Below are positions 10,574 to 39,235 of a stretch of DNA of 39,235 bases, one piece after another. A model generated the notes under the pieces. It ran no database searches. It worked only from the letters and a program-made list of their open reading frames with translations, and was not told the origin of the DNA. Made by a program: the position numbers and the translations under genes. Each line of letters opens with the position of its first letter. Position 1 is the first letter of the stretch. Source of the DNA: Escherichia phage 64795_ec1; the sequence record NC_031114.1. One strand, written 5' to 3'.

Positions 10574-10660
10574 ATGATTATTCACGAAATGGGTTTATAC
10601 GATTTGATTTATCATCTTGCTTTCTTACTGGCAATGGTATACGTATTGACCCGTAACTAA
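10574..10660 (+). CDS. hypothetical 28-aa hydrophobic micro-ORF
   Basis: MIIHEMGLYDLIYHLAFLLAMVYVLTRN in ~85 bp between gene 3.5 and phi3.8; no clear SD. Confidence 0.2.
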   Translation: MIIHEMGLYDLIYHLAFLLAMVYVLTRN

Positions 10661-10721: not shown

Positions 10722-12913
<2,192 letters not shown>

Positions 12914-13138: not shown

Positions 13139-13158
13139 TCAAACAGGAGAAACCCATT

Positions 13159-18078: not shown

Positions 18079-18140
18079 TAAACTCAAGGTCCCTAAATTA
18101 ATACGACTCACTATAGGGAGATAGGGGCCTTTATGATTAT
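18079..18140 (+). promoter_or_regulatory. RNase III site R6.5 (hairpin enclosing phi6.5)
   Basis: AACTCAAGGTCCC…(promoter)…GGGGCCTTTATGATTATTAC. Confidence 0.55.
18099..18121 (+). promoter_or_regulatory. T7-RNAP promoter phi6.5
   Basis: TAATACGACTCACTATAGGGAGA, +1 at 18116. Confidence 0.88.
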
Positions 18141-19437: not shown

Positions 19438-21048
19438 ATGGCTGAGAAGCGTAAAGGTCTAGCCGAGGAAGGAGCAAAGTCGGTTTATGACCGATTGAAG
19501 AACGACCGCGCTCCTTATGAGACTCGTGCTCAAAACTGCGCTCAGTACACCATTCCGTCCCTCTTCCCTAAGGATTCCGATAACTCATCCACAGACTACA
19601 CGACTCCGTGGCAAGCTGTGGGTGCTCGCGGTCTCAATAACTTGGCCTCTAAGCTCATGCTGGCGCTCTTCCCGATGCAAACGTGGATGAAGCTGACCAT
19701 CTCTGAGTACGAGGCAAAACAGTTACTGAATGACCCCGATGGACTCGCTAAGGTCGATGAGGGTCTCTCAATGGTAGAGCGTATCATTATGAACTACATT
19801 GAGTCTAACAGTTACCGAGTGACTCTCTTTGAGGCCCTCAAGCAGTTAGTCGTAGCTGGCAACGTTATGCTATACCTACCGGAACCAGAAGGGTCAAACT
19901 ACAATCCAATGAAGCTGTACAGATTGTCTTCTTATGTGGTCCAACGAGACGCATTCGGCAACGTTCTGCAAATGGTGACGCGTGATCAGATAGCTTTCGG
20001 TGCACTCCCTGAGGACATCCGTAAGTCTGTAGAAGGTCAAGGTGGTGAGAAGAAAGCCGATGAGACCATCGACGTGTACACTCACATCTATCTGGATGAG
20101 GACTCAGTTGAATACCTCAGATACGAAGAGGTAGAGGGTATGGAAGTCCAAGGCTCCGCTGGGACTTACCCTAAAGAGGCTTGCCCATATATCCCGATTC
20201 GAATGGTTCGACTGGATGGTGAATCCTACGGTCGTTCGTACATTGAGGAATACTTGGGCGACTTACGGTCCCTTGAGAATCTCCAAGAGGCCATCGTTAA
20301 GATGTCAATGATTAGCTCTAAGGTTATCGGCTTAGTGAATCCTGCTGGTATCACCCAGCCACGCCGACTGACCAAAGCTCAGACTGGTGACTTCGTTACT
20401 GGTCGTCCAGAAGACATCTCGTTCCTCCAACTGGAGAAGCAAGCAGACTTTACTGTAGCCAAGGCTGTCAGTGACGCTATTGAGGCTCGCCTTTCGTTTG
20501 CCTTTATGTTGAACTCTGCGGTTCAACGTACAGGGGAACGTGTGACCGCCGAAGAGATTCGGTATGTGGCCTCCGAACTTGAAGATACTTTAGGTGGTGT
20601 CTACTCTATCCTTTCTCAAGAATTACAATTGCCTCTGGTACGAGTGCTCTTGAAGCAACTACAAGCCACGCAACAGATTCCTGAGTTACCTAAGGAAGCA
20701 GTAGAGCCAACCATTAGTACAGGCTTGGAAGCAATTGGTCGAGGACAAGACCTTGATAAGCTGGAGCGTTGCGTAACTGCGTGGGCTGCTCTGGCTCCTA
20801 TGCGCGATGACCCTGACATCAACCTTGCGATGATTAAGCTGCGCATTGCGAACGCTATCGGTATTGACACTTCTGGCATTCTTCTTACCGAAGAACAGAA
20901 GCAACAGAAGATGGCTCAACAGGCTATGCAAATGGGTATGGATAATGGTGCTGCTGCGCTTGGTCAAGGTATGGCTGCACAGGCTACAGCTTCACCTGAG
21001 GCTATGGCTGCTGCCGCTGATTCCGTAGGTTTACAGCCGGGCATTTAA
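19438..21048 (+). CDS. 8: portal (head-tail connector) protein (gene 8)
   Basis: 536 aa MAEKRKGLAEEGAKSVYDRLKNDRAPYETRAQNCAQYTIPSLFPKDSD…. Confidence 0.98.
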   Translation: MAEKRKGLAEEGAKSVYDRLKNDRAPYETRAQNCAQYTIPSLFPKDSDNSSTDYTTPWQAVGARGLNNLASKLMLALFPMQTWMKLTISEYEAKQLLNDPDGLAKVDEGLSMVERIIMNYIESNSYRVTLFEALKQLVVAGNVMLYLPEPEGSNYNPMKLYRLSSYVVQRDAFGNVLQMVTRDQIAFGALPEDIRKSVEGQGGEKKADETIDVYTHIYLDEDSVEYLRYEEVEGMEVQGSAGTYPKEACPYIPIRMVRLDGESYGRSYIEEYLGDLRSLENLQEAIVKMSMISSKVIGLVNPAGITQPRRLTKAQTGDFVTGRPEDISFLQLEKQADFTVAKAVSDAIEARLSFAFMLNSAVQRTGERVTAEEIRYVASELEDTLGGVYSILSQELQLPLVRVLLKQLQATQQIPELPKEAVEPTISTGLEAIGRGQDLDKLERCVTAWAALAPMRDDPDINLAMIKLRIANAIGIDTSGILLTEEQKQQKMAQQAMQMGMDNGAAALGQGMAAQATASPEAMAAAADSVGLQPGI

Positions 21049-21069
21049 TACGACTTCACTATAGGGAGA
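21046..21069 (+). promoter_or_regulatory. T7-RNAP promoter phi9, variant with one extra T (TAATACGACTTCACTATAGGGAGA)
   Basis: 24-nt match to the 23-nt consensus with an inserted T at 21055/21056; gene 8 stop TAA is its first triplet. Confidence 0.6.
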
Positions 21070-21148
21070 CCTCATCTTTGAAATGAGCGATGACCAGAGG
21101 TTGGAGTCCTCGGTCTTCCTATAGTTCAACTTTAAGGAGACAATAATA

Positions 21149-22072
21149 ATGGCTGAATCTAATGCAGACGTATATGCATCTTTTGGCGTGAACTCCGCTG
21201 TGATGTCTGGTGGTTCCGTTGAGGAACATGAGCAGAACATGCTGGCTCTTGATGTTGCTGCCCGTGATGGCGATGATGCAATCGAGTTAGCGTCCGACGA
21301 AGCGGAAACAGAACGTGACCTGTATGACAACTCTGACCCATTCGGTCAAGAAGATGATGAGGGGCGCATTCAGGTTCGTATTGGTGATGGCTCTGAGCCG
21401 ACCGATGTGGACACTGGAGAAGAAGGCTTTGAGGGCACCGAAGGTTCCGAAGAGTTTACCCCACTGGGTGAGACTCCAGAAGAACTGGTAGCTGCCTCTG
21501 AGCAACTTGGCGAGCACGAAGAAGGCTTCCAAGAGATGATTAACATTGCTGCCGAGCGTGGCATGAGTGTCGAGACCATTGAGGCTATCCAGCGTGAGTA
21601 CGAGGAGAACGAAGAGTTGTCCGCTGAGTCCTACGCTAAGCTGGCTGAAATTGGCTACACGAAGGCGTTCATTGACTCATATATCCGTGGTCAAGAAGCT
21701 CTGGTGGAGCAGTACGTAAACAGTGTCATTGAGTACGCTGGTGGTCGTGAACGCTTTGACGCACTGTATAATCACCTTGAGACGCACAACCCTGAGGCTG
21801 CACAGTCGCTTGACAATGCGTTGACCAATCGTGACTTAGCGACCGTTAAGGCTATCATCAACTTGGCTGGTGAGTCTCGCGCTAAGGCGTTCGGTCGTAA
21901 GCCAACTCGTAGTGTGACTAATCGTGCTATTCCGGCTAAACCTCAGGCTACTAAGCGTGAAGGCTTTGCGGACCGTAGCGAGATGATTAAAGCTATGAGC
22001 GACCCTCGGTATCGCACAGATGCCAACTATCGTCGTCAAGTCGAACAGAAAGTAATCGATTCGAACTTCTGA
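21149..22072 (+). CDS. 9: capsid assembly scaffolding protein (gene 9)
   Basis: 307 aa acidic protein MAESNADVYASFGVNSAVMSGGSVEEHEQNMLALDVAARDGDDAIELASDEAE…. Confidence 0.97.
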   Translation: MAESNADVYASFGVNSAVMSGGSVEEHEQNMLALDVAARDGDDAIELASDEAETERDLYDNSDPFGQEDDEGRIQVRIGDGSEPTDVDTGEEGFEGTEGSEEFTPLGETPEELVAASEQLGEHEEGFQEMINIAAERGMSVETIEAIQREYEENEELSAESYAKLAEIGYTKAFIDSYIRGQEALVEQYVNSVIEYAGGRERFDALYNHLETHNPEAAQSLDNALTNRDLATVKAIINLAGESRAKAFGRKPTRSVTNRAIPAKPQATKREGFADRSEMIKAMSDPRYRTDANYRRQVEQKVIDSNF

Positions 22073-22085
22073 TAGACTCTGAAAT

Positions 22086-22108
22086 TAATACGACTCACTA
22101 TAGGGAGA
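22086..22108 (+). promoter_or_regulatory. T7-RNAP promoter phi10
   Basis: TAATACGACTCACTATAGGGAGACCACAACGGTTTCCCTCTAGAAAT, +1 at 22103; strong SD AAGGAG before gene 10. Confidence 0.9.
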
Positions 22109-22170
22109 CCACAACGGTTTCCCTCTAGAAATCATTCTTTGTTTAACTTTCTTAAGAAGGAGACATACAT

Positions 22171-23205
22171 ATGGCTAACATGACTGGTGGACAGCAACTG
22201 GGTACTAACCAAGGTAAAGGCGTAAGCGGTGGTGCCGATAAACTGGCGTTGTTCTTGAAGGTATTTGGTGGTGAAGTTCTGACTGCATTCGCTCGTACCT
22301 CCGTGACCACTTCTCGCCACATGGTCCGTTCCATCTCCAGCGGTAAATCTGCTCAGTTCCCTGTTCTGGGTCGCACTCAGGCAGCGTATCTGGCTCCGGG
22401 TGAGAACCTCGACGATAAACGTAAAGACATCAAACACACCGAGAAGGTAATCACCATTGATGGTCTCCTGACGGCTGACGTTCTGATTTACGATATTGAG
22501 GACGCGATGAACCACTATGACGTTCGCTCTGAGTACACCTCTCAGTTGGGTGAATCTCTGGCGATGGCTGCTGATGGTGCGGTTCTGGCTGAGATTGCCG
22601 GTCTGTGTAACTTGGTAGGGACCTCTAACGAGAACATTGAGGGCCTAGGTGCTGCTACCGTAATTGAGACCACTCAGGCCAAGACTGCACTTACCGACCA
22701 AGTTGCTCTGGGTAAAGAGATTATTGCGGCTCTGACTAAAGCTCGTGCGGCTCTGACCAAGAACTATGTTCCGGCTGCTGACCGAGTGTTCTACTGCGAC
22801 CCTGACAGCTACTCTGCGATTCTGGCAGCACTGATGCCGAACGCTGCAAACTACGCTGCTCTGATTGACCCTGAGAAGGGTTCTATCCGCAACGTTATGG
22901 GCTTTGAGGTTGTAGAAGTTCCGCACCTCACCGCTGGTGGCGCTGGTACTGCCCGTGATGGCGTAACTGGTCAGAAGCACACCTTCCCTGCCACTAAGAG
23001 TGGTAATGACAAGGTAGCTAAGGACAACGTTATCGGCCTGTTCATGCACCGCTCTGCGGTAGGTACCGTTAAGCTGCGCGACTTGGCTCTGGAGCGCGCT
23101 CGCCGTGCTAACTTCCAAGCTGACCAGATTATCGCTAAGTACGCAATGGGTCACGGTGGTCTGCGCCCAGAAGCTGCTGGTGCAGTGGTTTTCAAGGGGG
23201 AGTAA
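22171..23205 (+). CDS. 10A: major capsid protein 10A
   Basis: 344 aa MANMTGGQQLGTNQGKGVSGGADKLALFLKVFGGEVLTAFARTSVTTSRH…. Confidence 0.98.
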   Translation: MANMTGGQQLGTNQGKGVSGGADKLALFLKVFGGEVLTAFARTSVTTSRHMVRSISSGKSAQFPVLGRTQAAYLAPGENLDDKRKDIKHTEKVITIDGLLTADVLIYDIEDAMNHYDVRSEYTSQLGESLAMAADGAVLAEIAGLCNLVGTSNENIEGLGAATVIETTQAKTALTDQVALGKEIIAALTKARAALTKNYVPAADRVFYCDPDSYSAILAALMPNAANYAALIDPEKGSIRNVMGFEVVEVPHLTAGGAGTARDGVTGQKHTFPATKSGNDKVAKDNVIGLFMHRSAVGTVKLRDLALERARRANFQADQIIAKYAMGHGGLRPEAAGAVVFKGE

Positions 23206-23342
23206 TGCTAAGGGTGGCCTCAACGGTCGCTGCTAGTCCCGAAGAGGCGAGTGTTACTTCAACAGAAGAAACCTTAACGCCAGCACAGAAGGCCGCACGC
23301 ACCCGCGCTGCTAACAAACCAGCTGCTGCCGCTGAGCAATAA
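22171..23342 (+). CDS. 10B: minor capsid protein 10B by -1 ribosomal frameshift near 23188-23194
   Basis: slippery G GTT TTC; -1 frame then reads QGGVMLRVASTVAASPEEASVTSTEETLTPAQKAARTRAANKPAAAAEQ to TAA 23340-23342. Confidence 0.7.
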
Positions 23343-23349
23343 CTAGCAT

Positions 23350-23390
23350 AACCCCTTGGGGCCTCTAAACGGGTCTTGAGGGGTTTTTTG
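23350..23390 (+). terminator. T7-RNAP terminator Tphi
   Basis: AACCCCTTGGGGCCTCTAAACGGGTCTTGAGGGGTTTTTTG hairpin plus U-run. Confidence 0.9.
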
Positions 23391-23407
23391 CTTAAAGGAG
23401 GAACTAT

Positions 23408-23998
23408 ATGCGCTCATACGATATGAACGTTGAGACTGCCGCTGAGTTATCCGCTGTTAACGACATTCTGGCATCTATCGGTGAACCTCCGGTATCAACT
23501 CTGGAAGGTGATGCTAACGCGGATGTAGCGAACGCTCGGCGTATTCTCAACAAGATTAACCGACAGATTCAGTCTCGTGGCTGGACGTTCAACATTGAGG
23601 AAGGCATAACGCTATTACCCGATGTTTACTCCAACCTGATTGTATACAGTGACGATTATCTGTCCCTAATGGCTACTTCCGGTCAATCCATCTACGTGAA
23701 CCGAGGTGGCTACGTCTATGACCGAACGAGTCAATCAGACCGCTTTGAGTCCGGTATTACCGTGAACATTATTCGTCTCCGAGACTACGATGAGATGCCT
23801 GAGTGCTTCCGTTACTGGATTGTCACCAAGGCTTCCCGTCAGTTCAATAACCGATTCTTTGGGGCACCGGAAGTAGAGGGTGTACTCCAAGAAGAGGAAG
23901 ATGAGGCTAGACGTCTCTGTATGGAGTACGAGGTGGACTACGGTGGGTACAATATGCTGGATGGTGACGCGTTCACTTCTGGTCTACTGACTCGCTAA
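23408..23998 (+). CDS. 11: tail tubular protein A (gene 11)
   Basis: 196 aa [66 protein letters not shown]…. Confidence 0.97.
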
Positions 23999-24018
23999 TA
24001 ATCAATAAGGAGGCTCTA

Positions 24019-26406
24019 ATGGCACTCATTAGCCAATCAATCAAGAACTTGAAGGGTGGTATCAGCCAACAGCCTGACATCCTTCGTTATCCCGACCAAG
24101 GGTCACGCCAAGTTAACGGTTGGTCTTCGGAGACCGAGGGCCTCCAAAAGCGTCCACCTCTGGTTTTCCTTAAGACCCTAGGAGGTAGTGGCGACTTAGG
24201 ACCAGCGCCTTACATCCATCTGATTAACCGTGATGAGAACGAACAGTATTACGCTGTGTTCACTGGTACAGGAATCCGTGTGTTTGACCTTGCTGGTAAC
24301 GAGAAGCAGGTTCGTTACCCAACCGATGGCGCTGCATATATACAGACAGCAAACCCTCGGAATGACCTGAGGATGGTCACAGTAGCTGACTACACCTTCA
24401 TCGTCAACAGGAATGTCCGTGTAGGTAAGAATACCAACTCGGTCAACCTTGCAGGGTTTAACCCTAAGAAAGACGCTTTAATTAATGTCCGTGGCGGTCA
24501 GTATGGTAGAACACTCCAGATTCAGATTAATGGAGGCACTCAGGCAAGCTATCAGATTCCAGATGGGTCACAGCCAGCGCATGTAAACAATACGGACGCT
24601 CAGTGGTTAGCTGAGGAACTGGCTAGACAACTAAGGGCTAACACTCCCGGATGGACATTCAACGTGGGCCAAGGCTTTATCCACATCATAGCAGATGCTG
24701 CTGGTGAGATTAACTCCTTGGTAACTAAGGATGGTTACGCGGACCAGTTGATTAACCCTGTAACCCACTACGCCCAATCATTCGCCAAGTTACCGCCAAA
24801 CGCGCCTGATGGATACATGGTTAAAATCGTTGGGGATGCCTCGAAGTCTGCTGACCAATATTACGTTCGCTATGACGCACAGCGTAAGGTCTGGGTTGAG
24901 ACATTAGGTTGGAACGTTACTAACCAACTTCTGTACGGGACTATGCCTCACGCCCTTGTGCGTGCTGCTGATGGTAACTTTGAGTTCAAGTGGATTGAGT
25001 GGAACCCGAAAACCTGTGGTGACGATGATACTAACCCTTGGCCCTCCTTCGTGGACTCCACAATCAACGATGTGTTCTTCTTCCGTAACCGTTTAGGTTT
25101 CCTCAGTGGAGAGAATATAATCTTGAGTAGAACCGCTAAGTACTTCAACTTCTACCCAGCGTCAATCGCAAACTTGAGCGACGATGACCCTATCGACGTA
25201 GCTGTGAGTACCAACCGAATCGCAATCCTTAAGTACGCCGTTCCGTTCTCGGAGGAGTTACTCATATGGTCCGACGAAGCACAGTTCGTCCTGACTGCAT
25301 CCGGCACCCTCACGTCGAAATCGGTAGAGTTGAACCTAACGACCCAGTTTGATGTACAGGACCGAGCGAGACCTTATGGTATTGGGCGCAATGTCTACTT
25401 CGCTAGTCCGAGGTCCAGCTTCACGTCAATACACAGGTACTACGCTGTGCAGGATGTAAGTTCCGTTAAGAACGCTGAGGACATTACAGCACACGTGCCT
25501 AACTACATCCCTAATGGTGTGTTCAGTATTTGCGGTAGTGGTACGGAAAACTTCTGTTCGGTACTATCTCACGGGGACCCTAGCAAAATCTTCATGTACA
25601 AATTCCTGTACCTGAACGAAGAGCTAAGGCAACAGTCGTGGTCTCATTGGGACTTTGGGGAAAACGTGCAGGTTCTAGCTTGCCAGAGTATCAACTCAGA
25701 TATGTATGTTATTCTCCGTAATGAGTTCAATACGTTCCTAGCTAAAATCTCTTTCACTAAGAACGCCATTGACTTACGAGGCGAACCCTATCGTGCCTTT
25801 ATGGACATGAAGATTCGCTACACGATTCCTAGCGGAACATACAACGATGATACCTATACTACCTCTATTCACCTGCCAACAATCTATGGTGCAAACTTCG
25901 GGAGGGGCAAAATCACTGTACTGGAACCTGACGGTAAGATAACTGTCTTTGAGCAACCTACGGCTGGGTGGCAAAGCGACCCATGGCTGAGGCTCAACGG
26001 TAACTTAGAGGGACGCACGGTGTACATTGGGTTCAACATTAACTTCATCTATGAGTTCTCTAAGTTTCTCATCAAGCAGACTGCCGACGACGGGTCTACC
26101 TCCACGGAAGACATTGGTCGCTTGCAGTTACGCCGAGCGTGGGTGAACTACGAGGATTCTGGTACGTTCGATATTTATGTTGAGAACCAATCGTCTAACT
26201 GGAAGTACACAATGGCAGGTTCTCGATTAGGCTCTAACGCTCTGAGGGCTGGGCGATTGAACTTAGGGACCGGACAATACCGATTCCCTGTAGTTGGCAA
26301 CGCCAAGTTCAATACTGTATACATCTCGTCAGATGAGACTACCCCATTGAACATCATTGGGTGTGGCTGGGAAGGTAACTACTTACGGAGAAGTTCCGGT
26401 ATTTAA
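24019..26406 (+). CDS. 12: tail tubular protein B (gene 12)
   Basis: 795 aa MALISQSIKNLKGGISQQPDILRYPDQGSRQVNGWSSETEGLQKRPP…. Confidence 0.97.
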   Translation: MALISQSIKNLKGGISQQPDILRYPDQGSRQVNGWSSETEGLQKRPPLVFLKTLGGSGDLGPAPYIHLINRDENEQYYAVFTGTGIRVFDLAGNEKQVRYPTDGAAYIQTANPRNDLRMVTVADYTFIVNRNVRVGKNTNSVNLAGFNPKKDALINVRGGQYGRTLQIQINGGTQASYQIPDGSQPAHVNNTDAQWLAEELARQLRANTPGWTFNVGQGFIHIIADAAGEINSLVTKDGYADQLINPVTHYAQSFAKLPPNAPDGYMVKIVGDASKSADQYYVRYDAQRKVWVETLGWNVTNQLLYGTMPHALVRAADGNFEFKWIEWNPKTCGDDDTNPWPSFVDSTINDVFFFRNRLGFLSGENIILSRTAKYFNFYPASIANLSDDDPIDVAVSTNRIAILKYAVPFSEELLIWSDEAQFVLTASGTLTSKSVELNLTTQFDVQDRARPYGIGRNVYFASPRSSFTSIHRYYAVQDVSSVKNAEDITAHVPNYIPNGVFSICGSGTENFCSVLSHGDPSKIFMYKFLYLNEELRQQSWSHWDFGENVQVLACQSINSDMYVILRNEFNTFLAKISFTKNAIDLRGEPYRAFMDMKIRYTIPSGTYNDDTYTTSIHLPTIYGANFGRGKITVLEPDGKITVFEQPTAGWQSDPWLRLNGNLEGRTVYIGFNINFIYEFSKFLIKQTADDGSTSTEDIGRLQLRRAWVNYEDSGTFDIYVENQSSNWKYTMAGSRLGSNALRAGRLNLGTGQYRFPVVGNAKFNTVYISSDETTPLNIIGCGWEGNYLRRSSGI

Positions 26407-26436
26407 TTAAATGTTCTCCCTGTGGTGGCTCGAAAT

Positions 26437-26459
26437 TAATACGACTCACTATAGGGAGA
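26437..26459 (+). promoter_or_regulatory. T7-RNAP promoter phi13
   Basis: TAATACGACTCACTATAGGGAGA, +1 at 26454. Confidence 0.88.
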
Positions 26460-26486
26460 ACAATACGACTACGGGAGGGTTTTCTT

Positions 26487-26903
26487 ATGATGATTATAAG
26501 ACCTACTAAAAGTACAGACTTTGAGGTATTCGCTCCGGCTCACCATGACATTCTTGAAGCTAAGGCCGCTGGTATTGAGCCGAGTTTCCCTGATGCTTCC
26601 GAGTGTGTCACGTTGAGCCTTTATGGGTTCCCTCTAGCCATAGGTGGCAACTGTGGGGACCAATGCTGGTTCGTTACTAGCGACCAAGTGTGGCGACTTA
26701 GTGGAAAAGCTAAGCGAGAGTTCCGTAAGTTAATCATGGAGTATCGCGATAAGATGCTTGAGAAGTATGATACTCTTTGGAATTACGTATGGGTAGGCAA
26801 TACGTCCCACATTCGTTTCCTCAAGACTATCGGTGCGGTATTCCATGAAGAGTACACACGAGATGGTCAGTTTCAACTATTCACAATAACGAAAGGAGGA
26901 TAA
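26487..26903 (+). CDS. 13: internal virion / assembly protein (gene 13)
   Basis: 138 aa MMIIRPTKSTDFEVFAPAHHDILEAKAAGIEPSFPDASECVTLSLYGFPLAIGGNCGDQCWFVTSDQVWRL…. Confidence 0.9.
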   Translation: MMIIRPTKSTDFEVFAPAHHDILEAKAAGIEPSFPDASECVTLSLYGFPLAIGGNCGDQCWFVTSDQVWRLSGKAKREFRKLIMEYRDKMLEKYDTLWNYVWVGNTSHIRFLKTIGAVFHEEYTRDGQFQLFTITKGG

Positions 26904-26907
26904 CCTT

Positions 26908-27498
26908 ATGTGCTGGCCTACCGCAATACCTATTGCATTGTCTGGTGTACAAGCTGTAAGTAATCAATACACTCAGTCCAAAATGATTGCCGCTCAGACC
27001 GCTGCTGGTCGTCGGCAAGCTATCGAACTTTTGAAGCAGACGAACATCCAGAATGCCGACCTATCGTTGCAAGCTCGAAGTAAACTTGAGGAAGCATCCT
27101 CTGAGTTGACCTCACAGAACATGCAGAAGGTCCAAGCTCTTGGGTCTATCCGAGCGGCTATCGGAGAGAGTATGCTCGAAGGTTCCTCAATGGACCGCAT
27201 TAAGCGAGTCACAGAGGGACAGTTCATTCGGGAAGCCAATATGGTAACTGAGAACTATCGCCGTGACTACCAAGCAATCTTCGCACAGCAACTTGGTGGC
27301 ACTCAAAGTGCTGCAAGTCAGATTAGCGAAATCTATAAGGGAGAACAGAAGCAGAAGAGTAAGCTACAGATGGTTCTGGACCCACTGGCTATCATGGGGT
27401 CTTCCGCTGCGAGTGCTTACGCATCCGGTGCGTTCGACTCTAAGTCCACAACTAAGGCACCTATTGTTGCCGCTAAAGGAACCAAGACGGGGAGGTAA
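26908..27498 (+). CDS. 14: internal virion protein B (gene 14)
   Basis: 196 aa MCWPTAIPIALSGVQAVSNQYTQSKMIAAQTAAGRRQAIELLKQTN…. Confidence 0.95.
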   Translation: MCWPTAIPIALSGVQAVSNQYTQSKMIAAQTAAGRRQAIELLKQTNIQNADLSLQARSKLEEASSELTSQNMQKVQALGSIRAAIGESMLEGSSMDRIKRVTEGQFIREANMVTENYRRDYQAIFAQQLGGTQSAASQISEIYKGEQKQKSKLQMVLDPLAIMGSSAASAYASGAFDSKSTTKAPIVAAKGTKTGR

Positions 27499-27504
27499 TG
27501 AGCT

Positions 27505-29748
27505 ATGAGTAAAATTGAATCTGCCCTTCAAGCGGCACAACCGGGACTCTCTCGGTTACGTGGTGGCACTGGCGGTATGGGCTATCGTGCAGCAACCACT
27601 CAGGCTGAGCAGCCAAAGTCCAGCCTATTGGACACCATTGGTCGGTTCGCTAAAGCTGGTGCCGATATGTATACCGCTAAGGAACAACGAGCACGCGACC
27701 TAGCTGACGAACGCTCTAACGAGATTATCCGTAAGCTGACTCCTGAGCAACGCCGAGAAGCTCTCAACAACGGGACACTTCTGTATCAGGATGACCCATA
27801 CGCTATGGAAGCACTACGAGTCAAGACTGGTCGTAACGCTGCGTACCTTGTGGACGATGACGTTATGCAGAAGGTCAAAGAGGGTGTCTTCCGTACTCGT
27901 GAAGAGATGGAACAATATCGCCATAGTCGTCTTCAAGAGGGCGCTAAGGCATACGCTGAGCAGTTCGGCATTGACCCTGAGGACGTTGATTATCAGCGTG
28001 GTTTCAACGGGGACATCACCGAGCGTAACATCTCGCTGTATGGTGCGCATGATAACTTCTTGAGCCAGCAAGCTCAGAAGGGTGCCATCATGAACAGCCG
28101 AGTGGAACTCAACGGTGTCCTTCAAGACCCTGACATGCTTCGCCGCCCAGACTCTGCGGACTTCTTTGAGAAGTACATCGACAACGGTCTGGTCACTGGG
28201 GCGATACCGTCTGACGCTCAAGCCACACAGCTTATAAGCCAAGCGTTCAGTGATGCTTCTAGCCGTGCTGGTGGTGCTGACTTCCTGATGCGAGTTGGTG
28301 ACAAGAAGGTAACACTCAACGGGACCACTACGACTTACCGAGAGTTGATGGGTGAAGAACAATGGAATGCTCTCATGGTCACAGCGCAACGTTCTCAGTT
28401 TGAGAATGACGCTAAGCTGAACGAGCAGTATCGTTTGAAGATTAACTCGGCGCTGAACCAAGAGGACCCTCGTACTGCGTGGGAGATGCTTCAAGGTATC
28501 AAGGCTGAACTCGATAAGGTTCAACCTGATGAGCAGATGACACCGCAACGTGAGTGGTTAATCTCGGCACAGGAGCAAGTTCAGAATCAGATGAACGCAT
28601 GGACGAAAGCTCAAGCGAAAGCTCTGGATGACTCAATGAAGTCTATGAACAAACTTGACGTAATCGACAAGCAGTTCCAGAAGCGAATCAACGGTGAGTG
28701 GGTCTCAACGGACTTCAAGGATATGCCAGTCAATGAGAACACTGGTGAGTTCAAACATAGCGATATGGTTAACTACGCCAATAAGAAACTCGCTGAGATT
28801 GACCGTATGGACATCCCAGATAGCGCCAAGGACATGATGAAGTTGAAATACCTTCAAGCGGACTCTAAGGACGGGGCATTCCGTACAGCAATCGGAACTA
28901 TGGTGACTGACGCTGGTCAAGAGTGGTCTGCCGCTGTGATTAACGGTAAGTTGCCAGAACGAACCCCAGCTCTGGATGCTCTACGTAGAATCCGTAATGC
29001 CGACCCTCAGTTGATTGCTGCGCTATACCCAGACCAAGCTGAGCTATTCCTGACGATGGACATGATGGACAAGCAGGGTATTGACCCTCAGGTTATTCTT
29101 GATGCCGACCGACTGAGTGTTAAGCGGTCCAAAGAGCAACGCTTTGAGGATGATAAAGCATTCGAGTCTGCACTGAACGCGTCTAAGGCTCCTGAGATTG
29201 CCCGTATGCCAGCGTCACTGCGTGAGTCTGCGCGTAAGATTTATGACTCAGTTAAATATCGCTCAGGGAACGAAAGTATGGCTATGGAGCAGATGACCAA
29301 GTTCCTTAAGGAATCTACCTACACGTTCACTGGTGACGATGTTGGTGGTGATACCGTTGGTGTAATTCCGAAGAACATGATGCAAGTCAACTCTGACCCG
29401 AAATCATGGGAGCAAGGTCGCGATATTCTGGAGGAAGCACGTAAGGGAATCATTGCGAGCAACCCTTGGATAACCAACAAGCAACTGACCATGTATTCTC
29501 AAGGTGACTCCATTTACCTCATGGACACCACTGGTCAAGTCCGCGTCCGTTATGATAAAGAGTTACTATCGAAGGTATGGAGTGAGAACCAGAAGAAACT
29601 CGAAGAGAAGGCTCGCGAGAAGGCTCTGACTGATGTTAACAAGCGAGCACCTATCGTTGCCGCTAAGAAGGCCCGTGAAGCTGCTGCTAAACGAGTCCGA
29701 GAGAAACGTAAACAGACTCCGAAGTTCATCTATGGACGTAAGGAGTAA
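27505..29748 (+). CDS. 15: internal virion protein C (gene 15)
   Basis: 747 aa MSKIESALQAAQPGLSRLRGGTGGMGYRAATTQAEQPKSSLLDTIGRFAKAGADMYTAKEQ…. Confidence 0.97.
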   Translation: MSKIESALQAAQPGLSRLRGGTGGMGYRAATTQAEQPKSSLLDTIGRFAKAGADMYTAKEQRARDLADERSNEIIRKLTPEQRREALNNGTLLYQDDPYAMEALRVKTGRNAAYLVDDDVMQKVKEGVFRTREEMEQYRHSRLQEGAKAYAEQFGIDPEDVDYQRGFNGDITERNISLYGAHDNFLSQQAQKGAIMNSRVELNGVLQDPDMLRRPDSADFFEKYIDNGLVTGAIPSDAQATQLISQAFSDASSRAGGADFLMRVGDKKVTLNGTTTTYRELMGEEQWNALMVTAQRSQFENDAKLNEQYRLKINSALNQEDPRTAWEMLQGIKAELDKVQPDEQMTPQREWLISAQEQVQNQMNAWTKAQAKALDDSMKSMNKLDVIDKQFQKRINGEWVSTDFKDMPVNENTGEFKHSDMVNYANKKLAEIDRMDIPDSAKDMMKLKYLQADSKDGAFRTAIGTMVTDAGQEWSAAVINGKLPERTPALDALRRIRNADPQLIAALYPDQAELFLTMDMMDKQGIDPQVILDADRLSVKRSKEQRFEDDKAFESALNASKAPEIARMPASLRESARKIYDSVKYRSGNESMAMEQMTKFLKESTYTFTGDDVGGDTVGVIPKNMMQVNSDPKSWEQGRDILEEARKGIIASNPWITNKQLTMYSQGDSIYLMDTTGQVRVRYDKELLSKVWSENQKKLEEKAREKALTDVNKRAPIVAAKKAREAAAKRVREKRKQTPKFIYGRKE

Positions 29749-29774
29749 CTAAAGGCTACATAAGGAGGCCCTAA

Positions 29775-32700
29775 ATGGATAAGTACGATAAGAACGTACC
29801 AAGTGATTATGATGGTCTGTTCCAAAAGGCGGCTGATGCCAACGGGGTCTCGTATGACCTTTTACGTAAAGTCGCTTGGACGGAATCACGCTTTGTACCT
29901 ACAGCAAAATCTAAGACTGGACCATTAGGCATGATGCAGTTCACCAAGGCAACCGCTAAGGCACTTGGTCTGCGAGTTACCGATGGTCCAGATGATGACC
30001 GACTAAACCCTGAGTTGGCTATCAATGCTGCCGCCAAGCACCTTGCAGGTCTGGTAGGGAAGTTTGATGGCGATGAACTCAAAGCTGCCCTTGCATACAA
30101 CCAAGGCGAGGGACGCTTGGGTAATCCTCAACTTGAGGCGTACTCTAAGGGAGACTTCGCGTCCATCTCTGAGGAAGGACGGAACTACATGCGTAACCTT
30201 CTGGATGTTGCTAAGTCACCTATGGCTGGACAGTTAGAAACTTTTGGAGGTATCACCCCAAAGGGTAAAGGCATTCCGGCTGACGTTGGACTAGCTGGAA
30301 TAGACCATAGTCAGAAAGTAACACAGGAACTTCCTGAGTCCACAAGTTTTGACGTTAAAGGTATCGAACAGGAGGCTCCGGCGAAACCATTCGCCAAGGA
30401 CTTTTGGGAGACCCACGGAGAAACACTTGATGAGTACAACAGTCGTTCAACCTTCTTCGGATTCAAAAATGCTGCCGAAGCTGAACTCTCCAACTCAGTC
30501 GCTGGGATGGCTTTCCGTGCTGGTCGCCTCGATAATGGTTTTGATGTGTTTAAAGACACCATTACGCCGACTCGCTGGAACTCTCACATCTGGACTCCAG
30601 AAGAGTTAGAGAAGATTCGAACTGAGGTTAAGAACCCTGCGTATATCAACGTGGTAACTGGTGGTTCTCCTGAGAATCTTGACGACCTCATTAAGCTGGC
30701 TAACGAGAACTTTGAGAATGACTCACTCGCTGCCGAAGCTGGCCTCGGTGCTAAACTGAGTGCTGGCATTATTGGCGCTGGTGTGGACCCTCTTAGTTAT
30801 GTTCCCATGGTTGGTGTAACTGGTAAGGGCTTTAAGTTAATCAATAAGGCTCTTGTGGTTGGTGCAGAAAGTGCTGCGCTGAACGTTGCATCCGAAGGTC
30901 TCCGCACATCCGTAGCTGGTGGCGATGCAGATTATGCTGGTGCTGCCTTAGGTGGCTTTGTGTTTGGCGCTGGTATGTCTGCAATCAGTGATGCTGTAGC
31001 TGCTGGTCTGAAACGTAGTAAACCAGAAGCTGAGTTCGACAATGAGTTCATTGGTCCCATGATGCGGATGGAAGCCCGTGAGACAGCGCGTAACGCCAAC
31101 TCTGCGGACCTCTCTCGGATGAACACTGAGAACATGAAGTTTGAAGGTGAATACAAAGGCGTTCCATATGAGGAACTTCCGACCGAAAAGGGTGCTGTGG
31201 TTCTCCATGACGGCTCCATACTTAGTGCGAGCAACCCAATCAACCCCAAGACTCTCAAAGAGTTCTCCGAGGTTGACCCTGAGAAAGCGGCACGAGGAAT
31301 CAAACTAGCAGGGTTCACTGAGATAGGGTTAAAGACCTTAGGCTCAGACGACGCTGATATTCGACGGGTAGCTATTGACCTAGTGCGGTCTCCTACCGGA
31401 ATGCAATCAGGTTCCTCAGGGAAGTATGGTTCAACAGCTTCGGACATTTTCGAGAAACTTCGTGGCACTGACCAGCGTACTTACAACGACTTGTATAAGG
31501 CGATGTCTGACGCGATGAAAGACCCTGAGTTCTCCACTGGCGGCGCTAAGATGTCTCGCGAAGAAGCTCGTTACACTATCGAGCGTCGAGTGTCCTTGGC
31601 TATTGAGAACCCTGAGCTACAGAAGGCTTTAACTCCTAACGAGCGAATCGTAATGGACATCGTTAAGCGACATTATGACACCAAGCGTGAACTTATGGAG
31701 AACCCTGCGGTCTTTGGTAACACGAAGGCTGTGAGTATCTTTCCGGAGAGTAGACACAAGGGAACATATGTTCCACATGTGTACGACAAGTACGCTAAGG
31801 CACTCAAAATTCAACAATATGGTGCTGAGGGCTTACAGGAAGGTATCGCTCGGTCATGGATGTGTAGCTACGATTTGAGGCCTGCGGTAAAGGCCCGTAT
31901 TGACGAAGCACTTAAAGAGATGCACGGTGTAGAGGAAGTCACACATGATATGGTGTATAAGTACGCTATGGATAAAGCATACGGTATCTCTCACTCAGAC
32001 AGGTTCACTAATAGCTCCATCATTGAGGAGAACATTGAGGGTCTTGTTGGTATTGAGAATAACTCATTCCTTGAAGCACGAAACCTCTTTGACTCCGACT
32101 TAGCAATCACCATGCCAGATGGTCAGCAATTCTCTGTGAACGATTTGAGGGACTTTAGTATGTTCCGTATCATGCCAGCGTATGACCGCCGTATCAACGG
32201 TGACATAGCCATCATGGGGTCTACCGGTAAAACCACTAAGGAACTTAAGGATGAGATTTTGGCTCTCAAAGCGAAAGCTGAGGGTGACGGTAAGAAGACT
32301 GGCGAGGTTCATGCTCTAATGGATACCGTTAAGATTCTTACTGGTCGTGCTCGACGCAATCAGGACACTGTGTGGGAAACCTCACTGCGTGCCATTAATG
32401 ACCTAGGGTTCTTCGCCAAGAACGCCTATATGGGTGCTCAGAACCTTACGGAGATTGCTGGGATGATTGCCACGGGTAACGTGCGTGCTCTTGGTCACGG
32501 TATCCCAATTCTACGTGATACACTCTACAAGTCTAAACCAGTTTCCGCTAAGGAACTTAAGGAACTCCATGCGTCTCTGTTCGGGAAGGAGGTGGACCAG
32601 TTGATTAGACCTCAACGTGCTGACATAGTGCAGCGTCTAAGGGAAGCAACTGACACAGGGCCTGTTGTGGCGAACATCGTAGGAACCTTAAAGTATTCCA

Positions 32701-33581
32701 CACAGGAACTAGCTGCTCGCTCTCCATGGACTAAGCTGCTTAATGGAACCACTAACTACCTTCTTGATGCTGCGCGTCAAGGTATGCTTGGGGACGTTAT
32801 TAGTTCTACCCTAACAGGTAAGACTACCCGCTGGGAGAAAGAAGGATTCCTTCGTGGTGCCTCCGTAACTCCTGAGCAGATGGCTGGAATCAAGGCTCTC
32901 ATCAAGGAACATATGGTACGTGGTGAGGACGGGAAGTTTACCGTTAAGGATAAGCACGCGTTCTCTATGGACCCTCGTGCTATGGACTTATGGAGACTGG
33001 CTGACAAGGTAGCTGATGAGGCGATGCTGCGTCCACACAAGGTGTCCTTACAGGATTCCCATGCGTTCGGAGCATTAGGTAAGATGGTCATGCAGTTTAA
33101 GTCTTTCACTATCAAGTCCCTTAACTCTAAGTTCCTGCGAACCTTCTACGATGGGTACAAGAACAACCGAGCGATTGACGCTGCGCTGACTGGTATCATA
33201 TCTATGGGTCTCGCTGGTGGCTACTACGCTATGGCTGCACACGTCAAAGCATATGGAATGCCTAAGGAGAAACGTAAAGAGTACTTGGAGCGAGCACTGG
33301 ACCCAACCATGATTGCCCACGCTTCGTTGTCTCGTAGTTCTCAATTGGGTGCTACTTTGGCTATGGCTGACCTAGTTGGTGGCCTGTTCGGGGTTGAGTC
33401 CTCAAAGATGGCCCGCTCTACGATTCTGCCTAAAGACACCATGAGGGAGCGTGACCCTAATAAGCCTTATACCTCGTGGGAGGTAATGGGTAATATGGGT
33501 TCCAACATTCTTGAACAGATGCCATCGGCTGGATTTGTGGCTAACGTTGGGGCTTCCCTACTTAATCTGCTGGCGTGGTGA
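29775..33581 (+). CDS. 16: internal virion protein D with N-terminal lytic transglycosylase domain (gene 16); reading frame ends early at TGA 33579-33581
   Basis: 1268 aa; …GVSYDLLRKVAWTESRFVPTAKSKTGPLGMMQFTKATAKALGL… (transglycosylase motif). Confidence 0.9.
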   Translation: MDKYDKNVPSDYDGLFQKAADANGVSYDLLRKVAWTESRFVPTAKSKTGPLGMMQFTKATAKALGLRVTDGPDDDRLNPELAINAAAKHLAGLVGKFDGDELKAALAYNQGEGRLGNPQLEAYSKGDFASISEEGRNYMRNLLDVAKSPMAGQLETFGGITPKGKGIPADVGLAGIDHSQKVTQELPESTSFDVKGIEQEAPAKPFAKDFWETHGETLDEYNSRSTFFGFKNAAEAELSNSVAGMAFRAGRLDNGFDVFKDTITPTRWNSHIWTPEELEKIRTEVKNPAYINVVTGGSPENLDDLIKLANENFENDSLAAEAGLGAKLSAGIIGAGVDPLSYVPMVGVTGKGFKLINKALVVGAESAALNVASEGLRTSVAGGDADYAGAALGGFVFGAGMSAISDAVAAGLKRSKPEAEFDNEFIGPMMRMEARETARNANSADLSRMNTENMKFEGEYKGVPYEELPTEKGAVVLHDGSILSASNPINPKTLKEFSEVDPEKAARGIKLAGFTEIGLKTLGSDDADIRRVAIDLVRSPTGMQSGSSGKYGSTASDIFEKLRGTDQRTYNDLYKAMSDAMKDPEFSTGGAKMSREEARYTIERRVSLAIENPELQKALTPNERIVMDIVKRHYDTKRELMENPAVFGNTKAVSIFPESRHKGTYVPHVYDKYAKALKIQQYGAEGLQEGIARSWMCSYDLRPAVKARIDEALKEMHGVEEVTHDMVYKYAMDKAYGISHSDRFTNSSIIEENIEGLVGIENNSFLEARNLFDSDLAITMPDGQQFSVNDLRDFSMFRIMPAYDRRINGDIAIMGSTGKTTKELKDEILALKAKAEGDGKKTGEVHALMDTVKILTGRARRNQDTVWETSLRAINDLGFFAKNAYMGAQNLTEIAGMIATGNVRALGHGIPILRDTLYKSKPVSAKELKELHASLFGKEVDQLIRPQRADIVQRLREATDTGPVVANIVGTLKYSTQELAARSPWTKLLNGTTNYLLDAARQGMLGDVISSTLTGKTTRWEKEGFLRGASVTPEQMAGIKALIKEHMVRGEDGKFTVKDKHAFSMDPRAMDLWRLADKVADEAMLRPHKVSLQDSHAFGALGKMVMQFKSFTIKSLNSKFLRTFYDGYKNNRAIDAALTGIISMGLAGGYYAMAAHVKAYGMPKEKRKEYLERALDPTMIAHASLSRSSQLGATLAMADLVGGLFGVESSKMARSTILPKDTMRERDPNKPYTSWEVMGNMGSNILEQMPSAGFVANVGASLLNLLAW

Positions 33582-33730
33582 ATGCTCCCAACAAAGCCAC
33601 TGAGCAGGACTTCATGACTGGCTTGATGAACTCTACCAAGGAGTTAGTACCTAACGACCCTCTTACTCAACAGCTTGTGTTGAAGATTTATGAGGCGAAT
33701 GGTGTTAACTTGAGGGAACGTCGGAAATAA
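33578..33730 (+). other. 16: displaced 3' segment of gene 16 (last 50 codons in the other frame)
   Basis: VNAPNKATEQDFMTGLMNSTKELVPNDPLTQQLVLKIYEANGVNLRERRK, stop TAA 33728-33730 inside phi17; 1268+50 codons equals the T7 gp16 length as I recall it. Confidence 0.6.
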
Positions 33731-33750
33731 TACGACTCACTATAGGGAGA
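33728..33750 (+). promoter_or_regulatory. T7-RNAP promoter phi17
   Basis: TAATACGACTCACTATAGGGAGA, +1 at 33745. Confidence 0.88.
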
Positions 33751-33802
33751 GGCGAAAGAATCTTCTCCCTGTAGTCTCTTAGATTTACTTTAAGGAGGTC
33801 AA

Positions 33803-34675
33803 ATGGCTAACGTAATTAAAACCGTTTTGACTTACCAGTTAGATGGCTCCACTCGTGATTTTAATATCCCGTTTGAGTATCTAGCCCGTAAGTTCGTAGT
33901 GGTAACTCTTATTGGTGTAGACCGCAAGGTCCTTACGATTAATACAGACTACCGTTTTGCTACTCGCACTACTATCTCACTAACCAAGGCTTGGGGTCCA
34001 GCGGATGGATATACTACAATAGAGCTACGTCGAGTAACCTCCACGACCGACCGCTTGGTTGACTTTACGGATGGCTCAATCCTCCGTGCGTATGACCTTA
34101 ACGTCGCTCAGATTCAAACGATGCACGTAGCGGAAGAGGCCCGTGACTTAACTGCGGATACTATCGGTGTCAATAATGATGGTAACTTGGATGCTCGTGG
34201 TCGTCGAATTGTGAACCTAGCGAACGCTGTAGATGACCGTGACGCTGTTCCGTTTGGTCAACTTAAGGCTATGAACCAGAACTCATGGCAGGCGCGTAAT
34301 GAGGCCTTACAGTTCCGTAATGAGGCTGAGACTTTCAGAAATCAAGCGGAGGGCTTTAAGACCGAGTCTGGCACTAACGCTGCTAATACGAAGCAGTGGC
34401 GTGATGAGACCAAAGGTTTCCGAGACGAAGCTGAGCAGTTTAAGAATACTGCTGGTCAATATTCTACATCCGCTGGGAACTCTGCGACCGCAGCACACCA
34501 ATCTGAGGTAAACGCTGAGAACTCCGCAACAGCCTCCGCTAACTCTGCCCAGTCAGCAGAACAGCAAGCAGACCGCGCTAAGGTGGAAGCAGACAAGTTG
34601 GGTAACTGGAATGCACTTGCAGGGGCAATTGATAGTGTTGACGGGAACAATGTCATGTTTAAAGGCGACATTTAG
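33803..34675 (+). CDS. 17: tail fibre protein (gene 17), proximal part: T7-type tail-anchor and coiled-coil shaft
   Basis: 290 aa MANVIKTVLTYQLDGSTRDFNIPFEYLARKFVVVTLIGVDRKVLTINTDYRF…; stops at TAG 34673-34675. Confidence 0.9.
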   Translation: MANVIKTVLTYQLDGSTRDFNIPFEYLARKFVVVTLIGVDRKVLTINTDYRFATRTTISLTKAWGPADGYTTIELRRVTSTTDRLVDFTDGSILRAYDLNVAQIQTMHVAEEARDLTADTIGVNNDGNLDARGRRIVNLANAVDDRDAVPFGQLKAMNQNSWQARNEALQFRNEAETFRNQAEGFKTESGTNAANTKQWRDETKGFRDEAEQFKNTAGQYSTSAGNSATAAHQSEVNAENSATASANSAQSAEQQADRAKVEADKLGNWNALAGAIDSVDGNNVMFKGDI

Positions 34676-35675
34676 AACACCTGCAAATATCGTAGGTGGT
34701 GGCTTAATCTCCAACGGTTCTGGTCATTTTGAGAAAGGCGTGGCTGTTAAGGGTGAATTAGATGTTGTAGGGGATGTTTCGGCGCATAAGGATGTGTGGG
34801 TAGATGGTGTAGTTGTAGCCAATGGTGGGATACAGCAACATTCAAATCCTAATACCCTTAATGAGGTGTGGAGGGTGTTTATTAAGGGGGTCCCACTCCA
34901 TATTGGAAACCGACAAGGTCTTCATCTTGGTTGGAACGAGACCAGTAATGGCGAGTCGTGTTTTGTTACTAACAAAGGTGCAGGTGGTGGTGGTTTTGTT
35001 TTCCGCACGGTAAACTTTGAGAACACTGCTGAGATTGGTCGCGTTACATTCACTGGTAACGGTGGAGTACGCGCCTTCGATTTACAAGCAATTAATGGTG
35101 CTCGTATTGAGGCTGGGAATAATATAGTTGGTGCGAGCATTTTCTCAGGAATGGGCGCCTGCCAGTTCAATACCGAAGGTAACTTGCTGGGAGGTCTATG
35201 GAACAGAGTTGGAGGTGACCTATACAACTACCTGTGGAACAAGAGTCACTTTGCTAAGCCACCTGCTGGGGTTCAATTGTTTACAGGCCGTGGTGGGGAC
35301 TACCTTGAGGGCCTTGTTGATACTACAGCTGTTGGGTTCCGCTGGTTCAATTCTGACAGAAGGCTTAAAGAAAACATAAAGGTTGTACGTTCCGCTGATG
35401 ATATGCTTAAGATTATCCGCTCATACATCCCGGTTTCCTATAAGTATAAGGACTCTGAGTATGTTGATAAGCGTGGCAGAACGGTAAGCGTTACCGGTAA
35501 GAACTCTCGTGCTGGTTTCATTACTCAGGATTTGATTCGAATCTGGCCAGAGGCGGTGGACGTGCTATCCGATGGTATGCAATCCCCAGACCCTAACCAA
35601 ATCATCGGTGGACTCATGCTTCTTGTCAAGAATCTTGATGAACGCGTACAGGAGTTGGAGAAAAATAACGTTTAA
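34674..35675 (+). CDS. 17: tail fibre (gene 17), distal receptor-binding part with C-terminal S74-like intramolecular chaperone, in the other frame
   Basis: RTPANIVGGGLISNGSGHFEKGVAVKGELDVVGD… then …NSDRRLKENIKVVRSADDMLKIIRSYIPVSYKYKD…IIGGLMLLVKNLDERVQELEKNNV; no independent SD, so a continuation of the proximal ORF is assumed. Confidence 0.75.
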   Translation, partial: RTPANIVGGGLISNGSGHFEKGVAVKGELDVVGDVSAHKDVWVDGVVVANGGIQQHSNPNTLNEVWRVFIKGVPLHIGNRQGLHLGWNETSNGESCFVTNKGAGGGGFVFRTVNFENTAEIGRVTFTGNGGVRAFDLQAINGARIEAGNNIVGASIFSGMGACQFNTEGNLLGGLWNRVGGDLYNYLWNKSHFAKPPAGVQLFTGRGGDYLEGLVDTTAVGFRWFNSDRRLKENIKVVRSADDMLKIIRSYIPVSYKYKDSEYVDKRGRTVSVTGKNSRAGFITQDLIRIWPEAVDVLSDGMQSPDPNQIIGGLMLLVKNLDERVQELEKNNV

Positions 35676-35723
35676 GGATAACACTGGATTAGGACCAAGG
35701 ATGGTATTTAATAAGGAGGATAC

Positions 35724-39156: not shown

Positions 39157-39235
39157 TCTCACAGTGTACGGACCCAAAGTTCCCCCCATACGGGGTACCT
39201 AAAGCCCACCTAAAGTCAACCGAAGGTCCTTAGGG
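39157..39235 (+). repeat. beginning of the direct terminal repeat (partial, truncated by the window edge)
   Basis: TCTCACAGTGTACGGACCCAAAGTTCCCCCCATACGGGGTACCTAAAGCCCACCTAAAGTCAACC closely matches the T7 genome-end sequence as recalled. Confidence 0.7.

Follow-up and report, generated by a model that had tools for sequence, protein, structure and literature searches.

Closest described systems

Promoters of bacteriophage T7 have a two-part architecture, with a polymerase-binding part from -17 to -5 and an initiation part from -4 to +6 (PMC4496689). One of its class III promoters, phi9, overlaps the stop codon of gene 8 about 100 nt upstream of gene 9 (NC_001604, position 21865). The internal virion or ejection protein gp16 of T7 (NP_042004) consists of 1318 aa, the last five of which are required for infectivity (PMC8954989), and adsorption requires the tail fibre gene 17 (PMC6962156). 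Tail fibres of the Bas102, ESh1 and NC-A type comprise about 623 aa and combine a T7-type N-terminus with a C-terminal Peptidase_S74 domain. Recoding is used in the same phage family by gene 10, where a genuine -1 frameshift separates 10A from 10B.

The window analysed here is the 39,235-nt sequence record of Escherichia phage 64795_ec1 (NC_031114.1), a near-complete T7-like (Teseptimavirus) genome with approximately 91% identity to T7. In its backbone it is a mosaic of wild-type character that shares about 91-94% identity with many environmental phages and does not correspond to a laboratory T7 strain. An earlier note had reported one-base indels in phi9, gene 16 and gene 17 and an amber codon in gene 3.8, and all of these are present in the sequence as recorded. 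The four lesions are private to this record; the relatives examined are intact at each site, with identical or nearly identical flanks. Most likely, the lesions represent a data-quality warning rather than new biology.

State of the genome record

The two ends of the contig are unequal. At the right end (39157-39235, + strand), the terminal repeat breaks off after its first 79 nt, whereas the left end starts at approximately T7 nt 320 and lacks the repeat, which indicates an unfinished or collapsed assembly. Variation in the C/G runs of the terminal repeat was considered as a further sign of error, but the same runs also vary among relatives and are thus uninformative.

All 56 T7 proteins were compared with the window by tblastn, and gp16 and gp17 were the only proteins split across two frames. 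Under strict criteria, the window contained two private 1-bp indels, compared to 0-3 per genome in six complete or near-complete relatives. Hence, there was no overall excess of such indels; what is unusual is their location rather than their number. Those private indels of the relatives that could be placed against annotated genes were intergenic, and gene 16 or gene 17 was broken in none of the six. An alignment of positions 33400-34800 with three independent metagenome contigs (about 94% identical) contained only two gap columns, which are the two frameshift lesions.

The relatives examined included metagenome contigs 93-94% identical to the window, and many of its close relatives are metagenome assemblies. 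Exact-protein look-ups with the truncated gp16, the N-terminal fragment of gp17, gp12, gp15 and gp14 yielded no independent copy of the same strain, and neither did megablast searches of positions 33000-35700 against complete E. coli genomes and against plasmids. IMG/VR, JGI metagenomes and GTDB genomes were also scanned for exact patterns that allowed either state of the lesions, and HZ2R8 was the only match.

Gene 16

As written, gene 16 (29775-33581, + strand) encodes 1268 aa, i.e. 1264 native residues followed by LLAW and a TGA stop codon (33579-33581). The remainder of the gene is stranded in the -1 frame (33569-33730, + strand) as 53 codons and a stop, ending in RERRK. A single base has been lost between positions 33566 and 33567, where the window reads TTAAT^CTG. 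At this site HZ2R8, ESh1, PHB19 and L017 have TTAATACTG, while T7, NC-A and L018 have a G at the lost position. HZ2R8 and PHB19 each match the window exactly over 20 nt on both sides of the gap. The missing base, a single A (or G) with T on one side and C on the other, thus lies outside any homopolymer. The deletion had earlier been assigned to the GG at 33577-33578, but the GTGGT at that point is the same in T7 and the other relatives, so that the lesion has to be moved upstream.

Over residues 1-1264 the product is 94% identical to T7 gp16, with the same Pfam SLT domain (residues 15-127), and the total lengths are equal once the missing base is restored. T7 residues 1265-1318 are found with 96% identity in the other frame of the window (tblastn). 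In contrast to T7 gp16, the open reading frame as written lacks the conserved C-terminus, including RERRK; in total, the frameshift removes the last 54 residues. The stranded 53 codons nevertheless still show purifying selection, with 0 nonsynonymous and 11 synonymous codon differences from HZ2R8, and 1 nonsynonymous and 17 synonymous differences from T7.

Gene 17

The upstream fragment of gene 17 (33803-34675, + strand) encodes 290 aa with a tail-attachment domain (Pfam Phage_T7_tail, residues 1-162) and a coiled coil, and ends at a TAG stop codon (34673-34675). This stop codon is created by an extra T in the TTT at 34671-34673. The distal part of the gene lies in the +1 frame (34674-35675, + strand), where 333 codons and a stop form an open frame encoding the Peptidase_S74 chaperone domain (Pfam). 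The mechanically called reading frame over this part extends from 34611 to 35675, and the two frames overlap at 34611-34675. If real, the frameshift would remove the whole distal half of gp17, including the S74 chaperone domain.

Without the extra T, gp17 has 623 aa, and intact homologues of 623 aa are 95-96% identical to it. The corrected protein is 86-90% identical to the tail fibres of Bas102 (89.7%), ESh1 and NC-A, whose domain order it shares, and 96% identical to the metagenomic tail fibres P0001 and P0003. It differs from the Bas102, ESh1 and NC-A fibres in that the gene as written is split at codon 290 by one T. The 37 closest gp17 homologues (82-96% identical, 601-626 aa) all cover the full query, and the extra T was absent from every relative whose DNA was aligned; for instance, L017-L019 have GACA-TTAGAACACC at this site, with near-identical flanks.

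The amber codon in the gene 3.8-like gene

A gene 3.8-like HNH homing-endonuclease gene (10722-11207, + strand; Pfam HNH_3) starts with the ATG at 10722 and contains an in-frame TAG at codon 24 (10791-10793). Its closest homologues (161 aa; 93% and 91% identical) have AAG (Lys) at this codon, and the TAG is thus a private A-to-T substitution. It is the only amber codon, and the gene is dispensable.

The phi9 promoter

In the window, phi9 (21046-21069, + strand) consists of the 23-nt T7 consensus with one insertion and reads TAATACGACTTCACTATAGGGAGA. The extra T, at 21055/21056, adjoins consensus position -8. The promoter is in the same syntenic position as in T7: its first three bases (TAA, 21046-21048) form the stop codon of gene 8, all 23 consensus bases are retained and the transcribed leader is near-identical. 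The difference from T7 is the extra T between -9 and -7. With this T, the sequence does not form the contiguous 23-bp consensus (-17 to +6), in which the recognition bases (-12 to -7) lie at a fixed distance from the melting and start region (-4 to +1). No single register then fits both the polymerase-binding part and the initiation part, and the activity of phi9 is predicted from its sequence to be reduced or lost. In contrast, the five other class III promoters (at 18099, 22086, 26437, 33728 and 38592) match the consensus exactly, with phi17 (33728-33750, + strand) serving as an intact control.

The extra T was absent from T7, NC-A, L020-L024 and every other fetched locus, as well as from three contigs that encode an identical gp9. 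When an 85-nt phi9 query was compared with 294 phage records, none matched at 99% identity or above, and the best 12 matches listed span 84 nt. The 24-mer with the insertion was likewise absent from IMG/VR and the JGI metagenomes.

The polymerase encoded in the window has T7-type residues in both its specificity loop and its AT-rich loop, in that residues 739-770 equal those of T7 except for M750I, and residues 93-101 are the same as in T7. The idea that the polymerase has adapted its specificity to the altered promoter was rejected, since M750I, the sole substitution in the specificity loop, is shared with Yanou and Bas104, which have a consensus phi9. An RNA structure that compensates for the insertion within the leader of gene 9 was rejected as well, as the folds of the window and the consensus were no better than those of shuffled sequences (z of about -0.5 to -0.6).

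The 100-nt spacer between genes 8 and 9 carries two further private substitutions, C21095 and A21121. The six 23-bp class III promoters together occupy 138 bp, or 0.35% of the genome, and a random error within them was improbable in advance. This low prior chance, in combination with the two private substitutions in the spacer, suggests that the change in phi9 may be genuine lineage-specific drift.

Origin of the lesions

The frameshifts in genes 16 and 17 probably reflect mistakes in base calling or assembly, in view of their expected lethality if real and of the draft state of the contig. The window would then represent a T7-like phage that is normal in other respects, recorded as an unfinished contig in which the loss of one A (33566/33567) and the gain of one T (34671-34673) arose during base calling, consensus polishing or assembly, at a rate of roughly one error per 10-20 kb. 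Both lesions would probably be absent from the replicating genome, and the real phage would encode a gp16 of 1318 aa and a gp17 of 623 aa. Errors of the same origin might also account for the extra T in phi9 and for the change from AAG to TAG in the HNH gene; equally, as neither element is essential, both might be genuine mutations that are tolerated.

The frames beyond the lesions have not decayed in either the gp16 tail or the distal open frame of gp17, which implies that they were translated until essentially the present. Each gene has a single lesion and downstream changes are predominantly synonymous, unlike in a decaying pseudogene. A compensating second indel was rejected, because comparison with relatives gave only one gap column per gene. 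The earlier suggestion of an artefact or a non-viable genome agrees with these findings, as the lesions are private, the stranded frames constrained, the frameshifts lethal if real and the contig ends unfinished. It is also possible, though rather unlikely, that all lesions are real. The genome would then be defective, originating from a metagenome or a high-multiplicity lysate in which wild-type phages supplied gp16 and gp17 in trans, or the mutations would be very recent. The lesions are undeniably part of the recorded sequence, and very recent mutations would likewise leave the downstream frames undecayed. Moreover, with many metagenome assemblies among the close relatives, plaque formation may never have been demonstrated for the source, and on the + strand all four lesions point in one odd direction (+T, +T, -A and A to T). 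However, a single lineage would have to have brought two independently lethal frameshifts, together with a promoter lesion and a nonsense codon, to consensus frequency without further decay, whereas lethal mutations cannot become fixed in a clonal lytic phage. None of these lesions occurs in any relative examined, and trans-complemented defectives are not known to predominate in T7-like populations.

Laboratory mutagenesis was suggested as an option in the earlier note, and the amber at 10791-10793 and the TAG created in gene 17 could point to a deliberately made amber or frameshift mutant stock. It is very improbable, as a screen for conditional lethals would not pick up the sole amber, which affects a dispensable homing-endonuclease gene, a suppressor host would not rescue the TAG of gene 17, which results from a frameshift, and tblastn found only gp16 and gp17 to be split. 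In addition, the environmental-like mosaic backbone is unlike laboratory T7, and the general surveys of reading frames and homologues brought no marker or engineered sequence to notice. Even less probable is recoding of gene 17, by a prfB-like +1 shift at AUU-UAG-A (34670-34676) or a slip at the upstream AAA-G, which would yield full-length fibre at a reduced dose. The site loosely has the geometry of prfB: a NUU codon in the P site directly precedes a stop codon that begins with U, a +1 shift is required, and a weak Shine-Dalgarno-like AAGG lies 4 nt upstream. The two frames also overlap, and the -1 site of gene 10 (GGTTTTC) is conserved in the window. Yet, judged by eye, the Shine-Dalgarno-like element is weak and its spacing is off, and tRNA-Ile would re-pair with UUU at only two of three positions. 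In contrast to prfB and gene 10A/10B, there is no strong stimulatory element, and the shifted arrangement occurs in no relative: the closest gp17 homologues are of full coverage, the aligned relatives lack the extra T, and the gp16 of relatives is an unshifted 1318 aa. Recoding of gene 17 could not rescue gene 16, where the 15-nt overlap of the frames (33567-33581) contains neither an X XXY YYZ heptamer nor another slippery site visible by eye. It is equally far-fetched that the T in gene 17 is real and the +1 shift a newly arisen throttle on fibre dosage, or the 290-aa piece a separate adaptor, with the insertion in phi9 as a down-mutation that re-tunes scaffold and capsid expression.

Implications for annotation

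In annotation, gene 16 (1318 aa) and gene 17 (623 aa) are best treated as intact pending confirmation at the level of reads. Taken at face value, the lesions would lead to false calls, with the ejection protein read as truncated, the tail fibre as split, the promoter as lost and the phage as an amber mutant, and they could mislead inferences on host range or recoding from this genome. Conversely, if a viable phage truly carried the lesions, two essential virion genes would prove more tolerant than expected or subject to recoding, but the evidence points the opposite way. The caution urged earlier over other conclusions from the window is sound, and other single-base oddities should be compared with relatives before they are interpreted.

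Sequence context of the lesions

The affected elements had been described as normally invariant or essential. This holds for gp16 and gp17, which are needed, but not for phi9, which is not essential in T7 (PMC6068830). Likewise, the three indels had all been attributed to short homopolymers, which is correct for the TTT of gene 17 but not for the lone A of gene 16, while in phi9 the reference state is a single T and the TT is the result of the change rather than its substrate. Flow-based or nanopore platforms would be expected to err in homopolymers; two of the three indels extend a T or TT run, but the third deletes a lone A, and the remaining lesion is a substitution. With one of three indels outside any run, the proposed homopolymer-prone signature has no clear support, and the error profile as a whole has no clean homopolymer character. 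Nor is a spatial cluster of the sites significant, as three random points fall within 35% of the length with a probability of about 0.28. Both insertions (2 of 2) duplicate a neighbouring base, which would occur by chance with p of about 0.19.

Frameshifts in genes 16 and 17

The upstream reading frame of gene 16 (29775–33581; 1268 amino acids) ends at a TGA, and the remainder lies in a different frame, up to 33730. When aligned with T7 and NC-A, the gene showed only one gap of 1 nt. At this site the window has CTTAAT-CTGCTGG, versus CTTAATACTGCTGG in the metagenome contig L017 and in the closest local relatives, HZ2R8, PHB19 and ESh1 (93–96% identity). The 20 nt on each side of the gap are the same in the window, HZ2R8 and PHB19. 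The lesion is therefore a lost A between positions 33566 and 33567. The earlier note had placed this indel in the GG near 33577–33578; the true site is about 11 nt upstream and outside any run, and the GTGGT at 33575–33579 is the same in T7 and the other relatives.

The 53 stranded codons of the gp16 tail differ from HZ2R8 in 11 codons, all synonymously, and from T7 in 17 codons synonymously and 1 nonsynonymously. The frame was thus selected until effectively the present day. The tail ends in RERRK; in T7, infectivity is reported to depend on the five C-terminal residues of gp16 (PMC8954989). The two frames of gene 16 overlap by only 15 nt (33567–33581), and this overlap contains no slippery heptamer. 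NC-A has a longer gp16 than the window and T7 (1486 versus 1318 amino acids), with about 504 nt inserted in frame opposite window positions ~31918–31929.

The upstream frame of gene 17 (33803–34675; 290 amino acids) ends at a TAG, and the remainder lies in an open reading frame at 34611–35675. Compared with Bas102, ESh1 and NC-A, the sole gap with a length not divisible by three is an extra T in the window, at 34671–34673. Once corrected, gp17 matched intact homologues of 623 amino acids in a protein search (95–96% identical). The corresponding DNA in three assemblies reads GGCGACA-TTAGAACACCTGC, with near-identical flanks that extend beyond 60 nt in both directions; between 33400 and 34800, the alignment of the window with these three contigs contained two gap columns only, namely the lesions in genes 16 and 17.

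Corrected gp17 comprises the T7 tail-attachment domain (residues 1–162) and a C-terminal Peptidase_S74 chaperone domain (residues 517–585). Bas102, ESh1, NC-A and many metagenome contigs have fibres of the same clade, with a T7-type N-terminus and a C-terminal Peptidase_S74 intramolecular-chaperone domain. T7 gp17 has no such domain, and it ceases to be homologous to the window at residue 290–291, essentially at the frameshift. Gene 17 is indispensable for adsorption (PMC6962156), and with the gene as written the phage would have no distal fibre at all.

Promoter phi9 and the gene 8–9 spacer

A fuzzy scan with the 23-nt T7 promoter consensus recovered five class III promoters with the exact consensus (at 18099, 22086, 26437, 33728 and 38592) and phi9 with one inserted base (21046–21069), which reads TAATACGACTTCACTATAGGGAGA. 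The extra T, at 21055/21056, was absent from T7 and NC-A, from three contigs whose gp9 protein is exactly that of the window, and from each of the 25 loci retrieved by then. None of 294 matching phage records had at least 99% identity to the phi9 region, and the 12 best listed of these records span 84 nt versus 85 nt in the query. The variant 24-mer did not occur in IMG/VR or the JGI metagenomes.

The RNA polymerase of the window is of the T7 type, and its specificity loop differs from that of T7 only by M750I, which is common to Yanou and Bas104, both with a consensus phi9. T7-type promoters consist of recognition bases and a melting and start region (PMC4496689), and the insertion falls between them. 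Because it separates these two parts, phi9 is predicted to be weakened or dead. Ablation of phi9 in T7 costs about 4 doublings per hour, a cost explained by read-through transcripts from upstream promoters (PMC6068830); its loss need not be lethal here. The gene 8 stop codon (21046–21048) is upstream of the insertion and thus untouched.

Two private substitutions, C21095 (A in the relatives aligned) and A21121 (G in the relatives aligned), are located in the same 100-nt spacer and slightly favour genuine drift there. Predicted folds of the gene 9 leader, in the window and consensus versions, were no better than those of shuffled sequence. The related Logan contig L023 (DRR848658) has its own one-base run-length change in the gene 8–9 leader, outside the promoter (GAAAATG versus GAAATG, ~4565–4575), so single-base indels in this spacer arise, or are mis-called, elsewhere.

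Amber codon in the HNH gene

The gene 3.8-like HNH gene (10722–11207) has a TAG at codon 24 (10791–10793). Lys occupies this position in the closest homologues (161 amino acids; 93% and 91% identical), with ACC AAG AAA versus ACT TAG AAA in the window, so the codon arose by an A-to-T substitution private to the window. The first 23 codons are identical even in homologues of only about 50% overall identity (13a, Ebrios, HZP2), and the amber codon is right at the mosaic junction of the gene. The product is a dispensable homing endonuclease, and the codon could be a true inactivation or a further error. In either case it is uninformative about laboratory mutagenesis. A further one-base change in run length, a private extra C (CCC versus CC in six relatives), occurs at ~13153–13155, in the non-coding spacer that separates the ATG of gene 4.5 from the ribosome-binding site.

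Genome placement and contig ends

Megablast against 50,697 phage records assigned the window to Teseptimavirus, with ~91% identity to T7, 13a and NC-A in the late region and ~92% identity to Yanou, Bas104 and 04922B in the early region; none of the records searched was near-identical. In tblastn searches with all 56 T7 proteins, the T7 gene order was kept across the whole window, and only gp16 and gp17 were split over two reading frames. At the right end, the terminal repeat is represented by its first 79 nt (39157–39235). The left end lacks the repeat: the sequence begins ~160 nt past it, at about T7 nt 320, and the repeat-rich end region is short of ~250 nt. Hence, the assembly of the contig is unfinished or collapsed.

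Distribution and origin of the lesions

As features of the text the lesions are real, and relative to homology they are clearly not random, as every one of them breaks an otherwise conserved element. The earlier note was right that these one-base lesions are present, but the pattern it claimed is weak. Three points fall within 35% of the length with p ~0.28, two of two insertions copy the neighbouring base with p ~0.19, and one indel is outside any run; neither a spatial cluster nor a homopolymer signature is supported. Under strict criteria the window has two private 1-bp indels, and six complete or near-complete relatives, used as a control, have 0–3 each. Where the relatives' indels could be positioned relative to annotated genes, they were between genes, and none of these relatives had a broken gene 16 or 17, going by annotation or called genes. 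The window's indels are unusual by location, not by number. On the + strand, all four lesions gain T or lose A (+T, +T, −A, A to T); a systematic base-calling bias could give this direction, but four events are too few to interpret.

The two frameshifts are probably errors in the record, because they are private with flanks the same or nearly the same as in the closest relatives, the frames behind them are still open and constrained, each alone would be expected to be lethal, and the contig is of draft quality. In a clonal lytic phage, two lethal frameshifts could not stand at consensus frequency. With indel-prone platforms or light polishing of the assembly, about one error per 10–20 kb is ordinary. 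The broader proposal of an artefact or a defective genome is supported. A truly defective genome, from a metagenome or a trans-complemented population, is the main alternative, although an unlikely one. A laboratory-mutagenised stock, also proposed earlier, is very improbable. Recoding across the frameshifts is likewise very unlikely, as neither shift is present in any relative and adequate signals are absent. The extra T in phi9 and the amber codon may be errors or real mutations that are tolerated. The lesions represent no new biology and are useful as a caveat on other single-base features of the window.

Several other features were observed. The T7 gene 10A/10B −1 frameshift motif GGTTTTC is kept near the end of gene 10 (~23183–23205), with a short open reading frame downstream (23205–23342). 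After gene 3.5 there is a hydrophobic open reading frame of 28 codons (10574–10660; MIIHEMGLYDLIYHLAFLLAMVYVLTRN). The window shares with Yanou and Bas104 an additional HNH endonuclease gene (5953–6369), located between genes 1.2 and 1.3.
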